This document shows, one piece after another, positions 8,396-45,469 of a DNA stretch of 64,000 nt. Below the pieces are notes generated by a model. The model was not told where the DNA came from. It made no database searches and saw nothing but the letters and a program-made list of their open reading frames with translations. Positions within the stretch are counted from its first letter, which is position 1. Every line of letters starts with the position of its first letter. Source of the stretch: Lophium mytilinum. Taxonomy: Eukaryota. Where the stretch lies: contig MU004184.1 in the NCBI GenBank assembly GCA_010093605.1, positions 2,242,801 through 2,306,800 on the forward strand, given 5' to 3'. A program made the position numbers and the translations under genes.

Positions 8396-9910
8396 ACTTG
8401 AAGCTGTAGGTCTTAGTCCTGAACGCGCATCAACATCGAAATAAAAGAAGGTCCTGCGCGGAGAGATTATACACCGCAGGCAGGCCCGGTCAACTGGAAA
8501 CGAGCGGGCGTTATAGCTGTGCATCATCACCGGCGAGCAAACAAGCCGTGAGCTCCTAAAGGTGACCGGATGCTAGCCATTAAGCGATCGGGCGCAGGCA
8601 GCTAGCGTGGCACAAGGCTGAAAAGATAGGACAAACGACGGGTGTGAGCTGACCCCGTCTGCAGGGGAGCCTGACATGCGCCACCCAGAAGACTGGAATA
8701 AAGCGCGCTGTCCCGCCACCGAGATGCTTGCTACGGGGGTGCGGCCCGCAGAGAACAGCAATCGAACAGTGAGTGGAGACTCCGCACTATGGGGTCTCAG
8801 CCTTACCTACCAAGTACTTCCTGGGTTAGGCCCAATTCGCGAGGCATCACCAACGATCCTACCGACTGTAGACTTTGCTCAAAAATGAAACGTAATAGTT
8901 TCTTGTTTCGCCAGTTCCAGCCCAGCTCTGAATATTCCATACTCGGCTTCTGTATATGTCATCTGAGAAGAGTCATCGAACCTTCCCACAGGCTCCAGCG
9001 AATTACGCTTCTCGAATCTCAGCCTTGCCGGGCCACACCCTACGATATCAGCGATTACCCTCCACCTGCCGCAAACATCCATGATAGCCCAACGCTTTCG
9101 TGGGTTCGTACATACGGTTTGTCCAGGATCAGCACATGGCCTCGACGAGTGACGTTGGGTGGTGGCTTAGACCATTGGGGGGGTCGTTACTTATCTGAAA
9201 GACGACCAATAGCACTGCTTCGCTCTAACCTGAAACTTTCCGGTGAACTGGTGGGTCTGCAGAGGTGTCCGGCTGTCGTTATTGACCATTTGCATCTACA
9301 CCTTCGCATATTCTTCCACTCTATTGGTCCAACGTGCAGTGCTCAAGACCTAGCACGATGGCCGAGAGAAGAACTGTCAACCGAACGCTGCCTACACCGG
9401 TCGAGGAGGAACCACCGGTCACGGGCCCGTGGGATGAATCATGCGGCACGTCAGGGGAGTAGAAATATGTGATGGCGGCCTTTGATAAGAACACGAACAT
9501 AAGATATACCTTCGCTTCTATGGGCATCATGTAGGCGAATGGTGTCTAAGGCCCAGAAAGGTTCATTGAGAAATCAGACAGTATGAAGATGTACAGATGA
9601 AACTCGAGGACAGGAACGGGTCCAGCCCAGAGCATTACGTAGATGTCAAAAGAGAAGAAAAGACTGAAACGACGTGATTGAAACGTGAAAAAGCGAAAAG
9701 AAACACATATGTGCGGCCGTATAATGCAGAGGCCGAGATGAGCTGTCATCCGCAATGTTCACCAAACCAAGCAGCTCGCCAAAGGAATCGGGGTATCATC
9801 CAAGCTCGAAGATCCGTCCACCCTTCCATCCCATGTGTAATGAAGTCGATGTCGCCATCAACATGGTATCAAACTCGCCCCGAATGACATAGAAAAGCAT
9901 GAAGGTATCG

Positions 9911-39100: not shown

Positions 39101-40946
39101 TGAATACGAGGACTCCACCAAGGTCCAAGACGATCTCTACGTCTACATCGCTGCTCTTAGAGCGATTCTTGCGGATAGGAACCTTGCCATCACCGGATTG
39201 AGTAACGAGTTGATCGACCACGAGATGCGAACTTCAAAGAAAATGGCACTTGAAGGCAAAGGACACGCCCCAGAGCTTACTTTGAAGATAATGGACATCC
39301 GCGACAAGCTGAAACCCAACGCACAGGACGGATCCCTCAAAGGAGCAATCTCGTCGGTTCGGACCCTGGTGACGAATCTTCAATGGCAAGCAGATGGTGG
39401 AAACGACCGCGCTCGAACCGAGTTGAAGATTGTCGAGAAAGAACTAGCTCAAATCCAGGCGATTTCAACCGCGCAGACAAAAGCACTAGCGGAACTGGAG
39501 AAGGAGCAAGAGCTGTTCCGGACGACGATGAACCGACGACTGGAGTTCTATCGTCAACTGCAGCATATCTCAGATACCGTGGCTCCATGGAAAGAGGAGA
39601 TGGACGAGCAGCTAGATGTGGTCGCTCTCGCAAGACAGCAGAAACTAGAAGTGACAGCGAAGAACAGCTTAGCCAGGACTAAAGCCAAGCAGCGGTTCTT
39701 GCTCCATTTGCGTGAAGAGAACAAGCAAGAGGGCGAGCGAATCTGCGTCATCTGCCAGAGCGAGTTTGAGAATGGAGTGTTGACCATCTGTGGACATCAG
39801 TTCTGCAAAGAGTGCATACAGGAGTGGTATAAGGCTCACCGCACATGCCCAGTAAGTCACATACTTTTAGTTTGAGTTCTGCGGCTAATACGAAAGATTC
39901 AGATCTGCAAGCGGAGGCTACATAATAACGATTTCCACGACATCACGTACAAACCCCAAGAGATTAGGGCACAAGAGGAAACGCATGAAAACGAAAGCCA
40001 GTCGCTACCATCGTCTCCTGGATCAGCACAGAGCTCTATCTACTCTGACATCAGCAGCACCGTCATGAACGAAATCAAGAGCATTGATCTTCCAGGAGCG
40101 TCATACGGAACAAAGGTGGACACGATTGCAAGACACTTGCTTTGGATCCGTAAGAACGACCCTGGGGCTAGATCCATCATCTTTTCCCAGTTCAGCGACT
40201 TCCTCGACGTACTGCGAAAAGCATTCGAGTCTTGGAAAATCGGCTGCAGCAGTATTGGCGAGAAGCACGGCATCGAGAAGTTCAAGGCAGACGCTAGCAC
40301 CGAATGTTTCCTCCTGGATGCCAAGTCGGACTCGTCTGGCCTGAATCTCGTCAACGCGACGTATGTCTTCCTCTGCGAACCACTCATCAACCCGGCCATC
40401 GAGCTCCAAGCGATAGCGCGAGTCCACAGGATTGGACAAGAACGACCCACGACGGTGTACATGTATCTGGTCAGCGACACGGTGGAAGAGGCTATCTACG
40501 ACATCTCCGTCTCGCGACGGCTAGAGCATATGAGTCAAGGACGAAAGGCAGCTTCCAGCGAATCGAGCTCGGGTACAGCCACGCCGAGTCTCCAGGAGAA
40601 CGCGATTGATGCGGCGAACTCGCTGGAGCTACAGCAGGCGCCACTCAAGCAGCTGATGCGCAAGAAGGGCGACGGGGAGGTTGTCGGGCAGGACGATCTG
40701 TGGAAGTGTTTGTTTGGTAAGCCGCGGAAGCACCAGACGGAGCCAAGCGAAGCGGCACAAGCGCAGGTGGATCGTCATTTGAGGGCAACGGCGGCGGAGG
40801 GGAGGGCTACAGCAGGGGAGGGTAGAGCTACGGTAGGGGAGGGTAGAGCTACGGTAGAGGAGGGCAGGACTGAAGCAGCGCGCAGCAGGTTGACGACTTG
40901 GTCCACCCCTGTGATCCGTTCGCTGTACTACAATACTCGCGAGTAG
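36105..40946 (+). CDS. IRC20: SNF2-family helicase with RING finger, Irc20/SHPRH-like (start codon uncertain; introns ~36555-36602 and 39852-39902)
   Basis: GGILAEEMGLGKTVE, WWRVCLDEAQMVE, AVSGTP, RING CVIC...CGHQFCKEC...CP|IC, IIFSQF, GLNLVNA and QAIARVHRIGQ. Confidence 0.9.
40782..40871 (+). repeat. 21-bp coding minisatellite (about 4.3 copies; RAT-x-x-EG)
   Basis: agggcaacggcggcggagggg / agggctacagcaggggagggt / agagctacggtaggggagggt / agagctacggtagaggagggc. Confidence 0.9.
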
Positions 40947-41113: not shown

Positions 41114-41550
41114 AGTCGTATAGTGTAGACCGTCGGTGTTGATCTTGCTTGCCCGCAATTCACTCGTTAATTACTTATGAAAAAACCCCACTAAGGACAC
41201 ACAAGGGTGTTTATTTCTTAGTCTCCCAATCTTGGGTGTGGTCTACCTGTGCTGCTCTTGTACGCCGTTAATACCCTTGATTACACAAACCAAATAACCC
41301 CAAAAAAAACTTCTCAGCTGTTGCTTGGATTTGAACTAGACTTGAGGCCCTAGTTCGAGTCCGAGTGCAGTTGAGGAGCTTTTTGTCCTTTTCCCTTTTT
41401 TAGGGGGTGGAAAACCCGTTTAGCCCCTCGCACGCCTTGCAGCTAGAGGGCTGCTTAAGCTGGTTGTAGCCTTAAGCAAGGCTCTGCGAAATATCTTGAA
41501 TATAGTACTGTGGTCAAATACATTTTTGGTGATGCCAAGCCCTTTATCAC
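41114..41550 (+). ncRNA. Putative structured non-coding RNA or structured UTR element, family unknown
   Basis: A 29-bp hairpin at 41310-41378 in which every non-Watson-Crick pair is G-U on the + strand, additional stems, a three-way junction at 41428-41489 and an Sm-like ATTTTTGG at 41522-41529. No ORF. Confidence 0.5.
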
Positions 41551-42578
41551 GTGATGTATCGCAATCGAAGCGTTGTAAACGAACGCCAGCCTTTGGATGT
41601 AGCTCAGGGTTCTTATTACGGAAAGGTAGCAGTCTACGAACCCTACCTAGAGCTCTCTACTAATGCACGAAGGGAGGCCGTACCGTTGATTCAGTTTCAG
41701 CTCACCAAACCCAACTTTTGGTCAGCACGATCGGCCCAATTTCTAGTTCATATCTCACGCCAAACTAGGTCTCATACCTCGTAAATACGCGTCCAACCGG
41801 AGGATAGCGGGGAAAGTTGCCTACGCAGCGGCAGCTCAGTGACGGGCCCAGAACTCACAAGGCGACGGGTTCGGGACTCTGCCACGATGCACAAGCTTTT
41901 GCTAAGGGCGAGCTTGGCGGGGCTTGATTTGCGAGGGGAATTGTGGGGACGGCTGGGACTGGGGCCCCGACGGCGGCGTGTCGTTTCGCTGCTTTTGTGT
42001 TGGCTGCGTGTCGCGTGCTGTCATCTGTCACCGTGTCACCCAAGTCTGTCCGCCGTCCGAAGGCTCCGGCGCCGCGGTGGTGGAGAGCGTAGGGAGAGAG
42101 GGGAGCTGAGGTTGAAGCGGAAGAGGGTGCTGAGTCGATGGCTGCGGTGTAAGGTGTGAGAGAAGCACGACGTCGAGGATCCGGCGAAGAGATTCCTGCA
42201 CGTTTTCCTGCCTGTGTCGGTGGCACGAATGCTTTCACATTTAGAGGCACGCCAGGCTGAGCTTGTGCCCGAGAAGGAGCGCCAGCGCAGCGGACGGCCA
42301 ATGGGAGGACGGCCGTGGTCGACGCAAGCTTTTCTTGGTGTCATTCCAATGACAGGGGCCATATTCCATCCCATCCCCTCCCGCCGTCGCTCTCAGCTGT
42401 GAAGAACGACCATTGACAACTTCTGACCCTCTTTCCCACTGCTCCCTCGATACAGACACGAGACGCGACCACCTCCTCGCTCTTTACCACGACGCCCTGC
42501 TACCAACGCTCTATACAGCTCCCCACGAGTCTCCCGTTGACTGTCTTTTAAACTGCGGGCTCTCAAGTCCCAACGTTC

Positions 42579-42591: not shown

Positions 42592-43054
42592 CAGCAGCGA
42601 ACTGCCCAGGTGCTTGTCTCGGCATCAACGACATCGTGCATCCGTAAGTGCTCCGCCTCGTTTTCCCCAGACGTCGTGCGCGTCCAAAGGACAATCCGAC
42701 TTGCTGCTTTCTGTCGCCCGCAACATGGGCCAAATGCACCCTCTCTCCGCCGCCCGAGTCCAGACCCTACGACGACACCACCTCGAGTCTGCCAGCCGGC
42801 TTCTTCTTGTCCTGCTGTCGCCAATTGCCGCACTGCGAGGACACAGCCAGACCCGTCGCTGACAGCAACACAGCAACTCTAGCAAAAGCATCTCCCTCGC
42901 GCTTCAGTCGCCGTTACAGCCCCGGCATCCTGTTACGCTTGCGTGGCCGCGACCCCTCCAACCCCACCTATACCTCCACGTCGACAACCTCCCTCTCGAG
43001 TCTCTCGGGCTATTCGACGCGGCTAGCCGCATCATGTAAACGGCGCATAGGAGC

Positions 43055-45469
43055 ATGAATCCCCCCGCTGCCCATCCCTCGCCCGCGCACACCTCGACGC
43101 CCACCCGATCGCTGCTCTCCCGCCTAAAGTCGCCCCTGCAGTCCAAGACGCGCAACTTCACCGAGTTCTACATCCAGGCCGACGACCCGCATCGCCGATA
43201 CACCCCGGGCGATGTCATAACCGGGAGCGTGATCCTGAAGGTGTTGAAGCCGTTCCGGGTCACCCATCTCGTGGTTTCGCTGCATGGGTACGTGCAGGTC
43301 TTCAAGAACCCGAACTCGCCCGGGGATGGATTGCGCAGTTACAGCAGCACCATCGCGTTGGGCAAGGGGAAGAAGGGAGGGAGCTATTTCGGGAATGGCT
43401 TTGCGTCGCTTTTCGAGGACGAGTACGTGTGTTGTGGTGAAGGGAGGCTCGCTGAGGGAGTCTACCATTTCAACTTCGAGCTGGAGTTCCCGTCGAAGGG
43501 GCTGCCGAGCAGCATTGATGTGCGTACTCTCGAATTGGCATTTGGACATCACTGACAAGCCTAGTTTGAGCGCGGCACTGTGTCGTATATGCTGACTTCG
43601 ACGCTGACTCGACCCACGACCATCTCCCCCACCACCTCCTGCGACACCAAGGTCTACCTCATCGAGACTATTGACATTGCGCCCATCCACGACCCGAAAC
43701 CGCGGACAATCACGCTGGAGGCAGTCTCGCGCGGATCGAGGAAGAAGAGGAGCGTCAAGACGGTCGCATCGACATTCAAGTCCCCCCCAAAGAGCTCCGA
43801 CACCTCCGAACCCGCCCGGAATAGCAGGGTGTCCGAGCTGGGCAGTGTGACGGAAGAGAGTGACACGCCCGAAAGCCCCTCGCCCAGCGACGTTAGTTTC
43901 GACAGTCAGCTCAGCAGTGGCGGCGGGACCGAGTACGGGGTGCGGTCTGTGGCCACTGCTGACAGCGCCACGGTCTGTGGGAGCAAGCTGTCGCTACGAG
44001 GGAAGTCCATTACGGCGAAGATCGAGATCGCGAAAGGTGGCTTCCTGCGCGGAGACAACATACCGGTCAAGATATCGGTCGAGCACACCAAGCACATCAA
44101 GAGCGTGCGGGGCATCATCGTCACGTTGTACAGGCAAGCCCGCGTCGACATGCACCCGGCTTTACCCGTTGCGCCTCACAGCAAGGGCGACAAGACCAAA
44201 TCGGAGGACTACTACCCGAAGTCGAGGACGGGGCTTGGCGGCTTGTCCTTGTCTTCCGCTGGGTCTAGCCACTTGTTTCGGAAGGACCTGTCTCAGTCTT
44301 ACGCGCCGCTCTACGTGGATCCAAAGACACTCACAGCCGAGGTGAAGTGTTCGGTCAGGGTTCCAGACGAAGCGTTCCCGACCATCTCGTCCGTTCCCGG
44401 TGCCATGATCAGCTTCAAGTACTACGTTGAGGTGGTGGTTGATCTGCAAGGCAAATTGACCGGCCTCGACAAATATTTCTCGAACAGCGGTCTTCTCAGC
44501 GTGCCGAACATGTACGGCAACACCCCAGAGATGGGACGGGCCGAGGACGCCAATGGGAGCATCTTCGCTGCGTGGGGCGGCAACTTCATCGACACTGAGT
44601 CTATTCGACGGGACAAGAGCGTCGTCTGCTCTGTTTTCGAGGTTGTCATTGGCACGAAAGACAGCGATCGGAATGGCAAGAGGAGGCAACAGGCACCCCC
44701 GGAAGTCGAGCCGAGCGTTGTCCAGGACCCAATACAAAACACTCACCACATTCCCCTGGCGGCTGGCGATCCACGATACTATCCTTCCCTCGAGGAGCAG
44801 GAGTACTACGGATACGAGCATCAAGACCATTATTACGGGAACTACGCTCCGGGCGAGGGCTATCAAGAGGGTGACTACCACGATGGCCAGTACTACGACG
44901 AATATGACGACATGCTACGTACTTCACACTTCCCGCCCCCGAATCCCGAACAGGAGGAAGAACTGCCGGAGAAAGAGCGGTTACGAAGAGCAGAAGCACG
45001 GCTATTACCGAGTCAGCCGCCTGAAGCTCCAGGAACGTCTGCTCAAGCCTCCCATATCATTCCACCCTCGGCGCCAGCCATTCCAGAAGACGATGCGCCG
45101 TATCACCCTAGTCCACAGCACCGGAATTACGAAGACGACAATATACCGGGTCGCTCTAACCTTTCTGGGCCGCCAATGCCATCAACGCCGTCTACAGTCA
45201 TCGCCGCCCCTCAATCCAACAGCCAGCTCGCACCGAGCTACTCCCCGCCCTCCTTGAACTCAGCACATCATCCGCACACGGAAGACAAGCAGGAGCTTCA
45301 GCGCCGGCGGTTGGAGATGGAACGAAGCGACCCCAACGACGTGCCAGACGATATGGGAGAAGCGAGCCGGTCACCTCACCCGGTCGTCGCTCCCTCGGCG
45401 CCTGTGCTGGACGAAGAGGACTTGGGCCAGCAGGCGGGGCATTCGGATCTACCGCGGTATGAACGGTGA
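43055..45469 (+). CDS. palF: pH-response arrestin PalF/Rim8 (intron 43520-43564)
   Basis: Arrestin N/C domains (PHRRYTPGD, LPSSID|FERGTVSY, EDYYPKSRTGLGGLSLSSAGS, ISFKYYVEV); EKERLRRAEARLLPSQPP; C-terminal PSAP...LPRYER. Confidence 0.93.

Follow-up and report, generated by a model that had tools for sequence, protein, structure and literature searches.

The intergenic DNA between an IRC20-like gene and a palF-like gene of Lophium mytilinum harbors what looks like a small gene. Four copies of it occur in the genome, and it appears built to produce a folded RNA of ~155 nt, possibly a precursor of microRNA-like RNAs. Judged from its sequence, it is fairly probable that this unit is an RNA polymerase III (Pol III) gene that is under selection as an RNA. 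We analyzed it within a 64-kb stretch of one contig (hereafter, the window) and against the rest of the assembly, which comprises 43.4 Mb in 49 contigs and has TTAGGG telomeres. The element lies between the IRC20 stop (40946) and the palF start (43055), both genes being on the + strand.

A sequence-only reading of the locus had proposed an uncatalogued structured RNA at 41114–41550, and all the strings it quoted are found where it had placed them. When this region was folded as + strand RNA, its stability exceeded that of shuffled sequences (z −5.03, 0 of 100 shuffles as good), while the − strand gave a z of 0.03. The long hairpin that had been described as a 29-bp element was recovered by itself with a z of −7.4, and removing it left the region no better than shuffles (z −0.61), so that the fold signal is local to the hairpin. 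Consistent with this, the stretch 41400–41550 alone and the part upstream of 41227 gave z values of −0.59 and 0.78, respectively.

Comparison with the rest of the genome defined a conserved unit, 41227–41401 on the + strand, that is smaller than the element first reported. A DNA search of the genome identified paralogs on three other contigs, C20, C18, and C8, with identities of 82%, 83%, and 74%, respectively. Using the most diverged copy as the query returned the identical set of four, and two sequence patterns allowing up to three mismatches gave three matches each, all among these four; the two DNA queries and two patterns together set the copy number at four at least. Alignment of the four copies revealed a sharp onset of conservation at 41227 and an end within the T-runs near 41390. 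A gene ends 270–470 bases before the element in all four cases. The genes next to the copies on C20, C18, and C8 are unrelated, and one of these copies faces the end of its neighbor head-on, which makes the earlier suggestion of a structured 3′ UTR element of IRC20 unlikely. The head-on copy is that on C20 (L002, 1501–1797), and a contig of a putative RNA run enters it from that side; RNA of the neighboring gene may overlap this copy in antisense. In the copy in the window, the contigs of that run leave 41149–41239 uncovered, a gap that carries no information about expression.

The four copies have been duplicated together with DNA beyond the transcript, as the upstream flanks shared among them indicate. 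In addition to the flank common to the unit in the window and its C20 copy (Table 1), the C18 and C8 copies share an upstream segment at −89 to −63 from the inferred start (1 of 300 shuffles as high), and local alignment of the upstream flanks found nothing significant in the remaining four of the six copy pairs. Shared flanks thus occur upstream in two of six pairs, and homology extends ~110 bases past the terminator in one of six. Genome DNA search found no separate copies of the latter, downstream flank, and we read it as co-duplicated DNA lying outside the RNA. The C20 pair allowed the unit to be compared with its own flanks: 146 of 157 positions (93%) are identical within the unit, as against 59 of 100 (59%) in the shared flank upstream and 74 of 110 (67%) downstream (unit versus downstream flank, Fisher p 7e-8).

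Table 1 Features of the IRC20–palF interval and its neighbors (window coordinates)
Feature	Position	Strand	Remarks
IRC20-like SNF2/RING helicase, last exon	39876..40946	+	From the ORF list; Helicase_C in this exon, SNF2 and RING in the preceding exon
Upstream flank common to the C20 copy	41151..41184	+	−77 to −44 from the inferred start; local score 30, 0 of 300 shuffles as high
Upstream Pol III-type region	41197..41219	+	TATA position at ~−31 to −24; TTATTTC-type motif at ~−18 to −11; putative function
5′ stem-loop domain	41228..41282	+	Ends pair with each other; loop nearly invariant
A-box-like motif, weak	41239..41249	+	At +12; 4.0 bits
A/C-rich unpaired linker	41283..41309	+	No pairs in the consensus fold; invariant at 17 of 27 columns
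Long hairpin, candidate Dicer substrate	41310..41378	+	29 opposed pairs; loop of 8–10 bases
B box	41352..41362	+	Within the 3′ hairpin arm, at +125; 13.1 bits
Pol III-type terminator	41380..41401	+	T5 41380–41384, T4 41389–41392, T6 41396–41401
Downstream flank common to the C20 copy only	41402..41508	+	74/110 identical; contains the U-rich linker with AGGGG/CCCCT stem and the three-way junction of the sequence-only reading
palF-like arrestin gene	43055..45469	+	Arrestin_N and Arrestin_C; downstream neighbor of the element

The unit contains a set of Pol III signals that were absent from the earlier description, as were the three paralogs. We scored A and B boxes with matrices built on tRNA genes of this genome (30 of the 42 listed). 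The B box of the unit has counterparts of 14.6, 13.6, and 8.6 bits in the C20, C18, and C8 copies, which compare with 13.6 bits in the gene for signal recognition particle (SRP) RNA and 7.9–18.7 bits in the tRNA genes. A B box of at least 12 bits followed by T5 occurs only once on either strand of the 64-kb window, namely in the unit; the same combination was found in 23 of the 30 tRNA genes, on which the matrix had been trained. Among 168,000 flank positions it occurred at three sites, two of which are tRNA genes and one of which is unexplained. A B box followed by a T-run lies on the − strand in the first 1,400 bases of L029, the flank of a tRNA locus (C15 near 900,700), where no tRNA was apparent by eye; a further orphan Pol III gene may be present there.

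The A box is weak. Its score of 4.0 bits is shared by three copies and is lost in C18 by a one-base gap; it lies below all 30 tRNA genes (6.4–10.7 bits) and above the best score within the SRP gene (−1.0). The TATA position is degenerate in the copy in the window and TATA-like in C18, C20, and C8. A TTATTTC-type motif precedes the SRP gene of this genome as well, and the upstream regions of the tRNA and SRP genes contain TATA-like strings in 14 of 31 cases and WATTYY in 15 of 31. From the C-A step and the onset of conservation, we infer A41228 as the transcription start. T-runs are present at the matching place in all four copies, with the first run of four or more Ts at +150 to +165 and none inside the unit, and the closest match to the terminator among 31 Pol III downstream regions is that of the SRP gene.

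The SRP gene (RF01502, C8:1274773–1275042) resembles the unit in its TTATTTC-type upstream motif, its weak A box, its internal B box of equal score and similar context, and its near-identical terminator. The body of the RNA is different: with the B box masked, local alignment scores were 14–15, compared with a shuffle mean of 16, and the unit gave no SRP match. Since the bodies are unrelated once the B box is masked, the unit and the SRP gene share a promoter design rather than descent, and we rejected an SRP-derived origin of the unit.

The RNA of each copy is predicted to fold better than shuffled sequence, with z values for the unit of −6.3, −3.5, −8.7, and −5.3 and the reverse strand always worse. 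The 5′ domain is nearly invariant in its first part (36 of 40 columns over the four copies); its closing stem has a pairing probability of 0.76–0.97 within the unit, and z values of the domain are −2.9, −3.2, −0.5, and −2.7 in the four copies. No pair in this domain is changed on both sides over the four copies, so it gains no support from covariation. In the hairpin, 22 Watson–Crick and 7 G-U combinations make up the 29 opposed pairs; over the four copies 94.8% of its cells are paired, four of the 29 pairs being changed on both sides and eight on one side only. For the whole structure, 96.7% of cells are paired, and five measures of pairing were reached by 6–19 of 500 shuffles, which amounts to weak support because the test compares four related sequences with a structure derived from those same sequences. 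Conservation is higher in the 5′ core than in the hairpin arms (36 of 40 versus 38 of 61 invariant columns, p 0.002), and the arms of the C8 copy are just 61–73% identical to those of the other copies.

A fairer test of selection on the RNA strand came from the mismatches in the hairpin. Aligned as a plain DNA palindrome, the arms contain 22 G-T but only 2 A-C oppositions (10 versus 2 distinct positions, p 0.04). Selection on a + strand RNA would be expected to produce such an excess, whereas a palindrome kept as DNA would not. This bias, together with the far greater conservation of the unit than of its co-duplicated flanks, points to selection acting on the + strand RNA.

Searches of the window and of the four copy loci assigned the unit to no known RNA family. 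Rfam gave no match in the 64-kb window at gathering level; at E values up to 10, the four copy loci gave five weak matches, none of them on the unit, and ARAGORN found no tRNA gene in the four loci. The earlier proposal of an uncatalogued structured RNA gene on the + strand is supported. The TAACCC hexamer in the linker, which the sequence-only reading had noted, is not a telomerase template and is altered in the C8 copy. The ascomycete telomerase RNA (RF02462) resembles the unit just in having this hexamer within an unpaired stretch, and differs in that the unit contains no full template. The telomerase RNA gene of this genome is located at C8:2051942, where the template TAACCCTAA precedes the Rfam match by ~1,050 bases; as the window contains no match and the pseudoknot pairing is not conserved, we rejected telomerase RNA as an identity of the unit. 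An snRNA of the Sm class was likewise rejected, since the Sm-like octamer lies outside the conserved unit, is missing from the flanks of all three paralogs, and is unaccompanied by an Rfam match at the copy loci, and since U4, the Sm-class snRNA covered genome-wide, lies elsewhere. Elsewhere in the genome, Rfam matches were found for SRP (1), U4 (6), and U6 (21). Seven of the 21 U6 matches are ~150 bases long (for example L094, L096, and L097 at C1:1758966, C23:111887, and C4:341535), and the three U6 loci that we aligned contain a spliceosomal intron of 49–51 bases just after the ACAGAGA box.

Small nucleolar RNA of the H/ACA type was also considered. In three of the four copies the first hairpin is followed by an ANANNA string, but in the alignment the second hairpin has neither a pocket nor an ACA behind it, and the internal loop of the first is variable; we rejected this assignment. 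The conserved intergenic structures 1–4 and H/ACA candidates of Pezizomycotina are stand-alone structured elements of 92–177 nt, as is the unit in kind; according to the available text of their description (PMC8216456), they are mostly single-copy, are present in hundreds of genomes, and in three cases have an H box and a guide pocket. The unit differs from them in its four copies and in lacking a conserved pocket and a 3′ ACA. For intergenic structure 2 (144 nt), the comparison extends to this published description.

We looked for relatives of the unit outside the genome. DNA pattern searches found none in viral contigs and none in metagenome contigs, the pattern demanding 19–20 exactly specified bases, such that diverged homologs would be missed. 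The same kind of search gave 10 matches in prokaryote genomes, which corresponds to chance level; one scored 12.4 bits by the model (E 0.13). Among 28 related IRC20 loci (50–76% identical in the best segment), neither the model nor nhmmer detected the unit (0 of 28 each). palF adjoins IRC20 in two of the 28, L063 and L065, which are 92% identical to each other and represent one lineage. Their IRC20–palF intervals contain no unit, no B box with T-run, and no long hairpin. L063 and L065 are distant from the locus in the window, with 61–78% protein identity and mostly unalignable intergenic DNA, and the absence hence shows no more than a lack of deep conservation of the element at the IRC20–palF locus.

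Motif strings of the unit were absent from the full-text literature searched and from the readable supplements of two surveys of fungal small RNAs (PMC9757828, PMC5640933, as far as these sources were accessible). A topic-level literature search returned nothing on this gene family, the supplement of PMC8216456 lying outside the comparison. Nearly all top-tier hairpin small-RNA loci of fungi are lineage-specific, according to the available part of PMC9757828; this fits the lack of homologs and also makes one more such locus less surprising.

How might such a gene work? The explanation that we tentatively adopt, giving it a little less than even credence, is that the unit belongs to a Pol III small-RNA gene family whose members function like the milR precursors of Neurospora, with the status of a candidate member. 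TFIIIC would bind the B box inside the hairpin along with the weak A box and place TFIIIB on the AT-rich region upstream. Pol III would then start near 41228 and stop in the T5 at 41380–41384, giving a putative RNA of ~155 nt that consists of the conserved 5′ stem-loop leader, the unpaired linker, and the 29-pair hairpin ending in U residues. The leader is probably a protein-binding or processing signal. The hairpin, a near-perfect helix of 29 pairs that has a small loop and carries a U tail, is likely a Dicer substrate, given that two Dicer genes are present in the genome. Its cleavage into microRNA-like RNAs, as for Neurospora milR, would be a guess by analogy, and the same applies to loading of the small RNAs into Argonaute and to their targets. 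The constant leader and changing hairpin would fit an expression cassette, comparable to the tRNA-plus-hairpin arrangement of milR-4 but with a leader that is not a tRNA.

The Neurospora precedents are informative in both directions. In Neurospora crassa, Pol III transcribes milR-1 to milR-4 from intergenic sites, each of them has a T-stretch immediately following the small RNA, and pri-milR-1 is ~170 nt long; milR-1 has neither an A nor a B box, and milR-4 is cut by RNase Z from a tRNA-containing precursor (available text of PMC3547838). They use different mixes of Dicer, QDE-2, and QIP (PMC3759863, in its accessible part). The unit resembles them, as so described, in its intergenic site, its Pol III signals, its stem-loop followed by a T-stretch, its similar length, and its TATA-like upstream elements; it differs in having no tRNA, a B box inside the hairpin, four copies, and a leader that is more conserved than the arms. 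The likeness is one of layout, and small RNA production is putative here. Several observations argue against the milRNA reading. The arms are less conserved here than the 5′ core, and conserved microRNAs normally show the reverse. The 22-base 5′ arm has no site in the genome within three mismatches except in the copies, and for the 5′ end, too, no near-perfect target was found besides the copies. The weak A box and the degenerate TATA position of the copy in the window also speak against a milR-like Pol III gene. The earlier idea of a small-RNA precursor is supported as a possibility; one feature expected of a milR gene, conservation concentrated in the duplex, is lacking. A bolder version of the cassette, which we think rather unlikely, is that the near-invariant non-tRNA 5′ module recruits a processing or partner protein while the variable hairpin, with its own B box, is the payload. 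If this were true, promoter and product would overlap, and the Pol III transcriptome of filamentous fungi would be much larger than catalogued.

The same Pol III gene could instead produce an RNA that works whole in a ribonucleoprotein, with the 5′ stem-loop binding a protein or pairing with another RNA; we rate this as less likely than the milR-like reading. The 3′ hairpin and U tail would then shield the RNA end and serve as a binding site for La or a La-related protein, as such elements do in other small Pol III RNAs. A conservation peak in the 5′ domain and its loop that exceeds what an A box needs is what this explanation expects, and so are arms that vary in sequence yet keep their pairs; moreover, other housekeeping RNA genes, U6 and U4, are dispersed in multiple copies in this genome. 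It is less easily reconciled with the near-perfect 29-pair helix, which would likely be cut in a genome with two Dicers, with the lack of an Rfam match, and with the lack of any homolog outside the L. mytilinum genome in the searches of contigs and IRC20 loci. Somewhat less probable still is that the copies have no function for the host and represent a low-copy Pol III repeat, SINE-like or otherwise selfish, or else a gene family in decay. Its A and B boxes, T-rich end, and dispersed intergenic copies, its absence from the syntenic interval of two related loci, and the degenerate TATA position of the copy in the window would all suit such an element. This explanation stays under consideration because low-copy SINE-like elements are known in Aspergillus: those of Aspergillus fumigatus measure 140–493 bp, occur in one to five or more copies, and have degenerate boxes (available text of PMC5063351). 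The tRNA-related SINEs AfuSINE2, MgSINE, and Foxy of filamentous fungi are, in that account, short like the unit and have A/B boxes and a T-rich end, and AfuSINE2 has few dispersed copies, as does the unit. What separates the unit from them is the absence of a target-site duplication and of a recognizable tRNA-derived head, homology beyond the transcript, and conservation above that of the flanks. Homology that begins 77–89 bases upstream of the inferred start and continues ~110 bases past the terminator argues against a SINE, since copying through a Pol III RNA would not carry flanks along. The longest flanking direct repeats are 6–7 bases long at scattered offsets, though target-site duplications of old insertions can decay. 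ARAGORN called no cloverleaf, and no clear match of the unit to tRNA bodies emerged (best local scores of 14–21 against 30 of the at least 42 tRNA genes, scored without a shuffle control). Conservation of the unit well above its flanks is likewise not expected of a repeat without function.

The remaining explanations dispense with the Pol III RNA or alter it. TFIIIC-binding sites of the extra-TFIIIC or boundary type occur in yeast, and the unit might be such a DNA-level site, or else a small palindromic mobile element, that gives little or no RNA; we consider this improbable. The B box is indeed the strongest promoter motif, the hairpin also yields a B-box-like site on the opposite strand (10.7 bits in the copy in the window and in C18), and all four copies follow a gene end at a similar range of distances. 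Against it stand the strand-specific excess of G-U over A-C and the conservation of the 5′ stem-loop and terminator as well. A multicopy MITE, which the sequence-only reading had named as one case that would speak against an RNA, matches the data in so far as the element is multicopy. However, the two DNA queries found just four copies (a lower bound), the inverted repeat is internal and not terminal, and the 22 to 2 bias argues against a palindrome maintained as DNA, so we rejected a MITE. There is also a very slim chance that the Pol III RNA contains a spliceosomal intron of 58 bases (41260–41317, GTACGC ... CAG), which would leave a mature RNA of ~100 nt. The donor-like hexamer is invariant in all four copies, a YAG acceptor is present in three, the length ranges over 56–60 bases, and U6 genes of this genome do have introns (three of the four loci fetched were aligned, each with one). 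By contrast with the U6 introns, this stretch has no CTRAY branch site in any of the four copies, and it lacks an acceptor AG in C8; it includes the invariant 3′ strand of the 5′ stem, and similar look-alikes occur at 43 of 244 donor-like sites in the 64-kb window. The look-alike probably arose by chance, and we set it aside. Equally remote is the original proposal of a Pol II RNA of ~440 nt with a pseudoknot, a junction, and an Sm site, resembling a telomerase RNA or an snRNA, or of a structured IRC20 3′ UTR. Its long-range stem (41118–41132 with 41239–41252) does form in the 437-nt fold, which it dominates, and was better than chance in this copy (3 of 300 shuffles as good), although the segment was chosen after the fact. 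The upstream partner of this stem is missing from all three paralogs, with duplex energies of −20.1 in the copy in the window and −6.4 to −7.7 in the others. The proposed pseudoknot (41202–41211 with 41270–41279) is lost in the three paralogs (−14.2 versus −0.2 to −3.3); its pairing probability is 0 in the nested fold, which by its nature cannot show pseudoknots, and in each of the four copies the bases assigned to it are paired instead with the 5′ terminal part of the unit. The supposed three-way junction (41428–41489) is predicted as one hairpin with internal loops, and the homologous C20 flank folds differently. The Sm-site-like octamer (41522–41529) occurs three times in the window on both strands, the looser pattern A-T(4–6)-G-R occurring 15 times. 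The downstream flank common to one paralog could be cited in favor of a longer RNA; folding outside the hairpin is at chance level, the telomerase RNA with its full template, U4, U6, and SRP all reside elsewhere in the genome, nothing similar is present in the syntenic intervals of L063 and L065, and the conserved unit carries Pol III signals. Two upstream segments, 41118–41132 and 41202–41211, are complementary to the 5′ domain solely in the copy in the window; any role for these would require a transcript that reads through from IRC20.

To our knowledge, few Pol III RNAs other than tRNA, 5S, U6, SRP, and RNase P RNA have been described in filamentous fungi. The unit probably represents an undescribed Pol III-type small-RNA gene family that is under selection and is known from one genome. 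With four copies in which the leader stays constant while the hairpin diverges, the family offers a direct test of how such genes originate, spread by DNA duplication, and diversify; the Neurospora work did not settle where Pol III milRNAs come from or what they do (PMC3547838, in its available text). For now, its value is bounded by its standing as a candidate gene family of a single genome.

Other features of the interval and its neighbors were noted in passing. The IRC20 reading frame ends in a short tandem repeat with a unit of ~21 bases (EGRAT-type, 40800–40870), beyond the part matched in relatives. Between the element and palF, the − strand contains a canonical 63-base intron (41715–41777) with a GTATGA donor, a CTGAC branch site, and an AG acceptor, and one contig of the putative RNA run (depth 4) has a joint at 41710–41777 that fits it roughly. 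This intron is a hint that a spliced transcript may leave the palF promoter in the direction of the element, to which it would be antisense. Further downstream, a 31-base motif upstream of palF (42931–42961) is 87% identical in L063 (8397–8427) and L065 (8455–8485), the rest of the palF-upstream intergenic DNA being unalignable with these loci. A mini reading frame consisting of ATG and a stop (43034–43039) precedes the inferred palF start by 15 bases, and its spacing is equal in L063 (about 8770–8778); such a start-stop element would be compatible with a possible translational control of palF.
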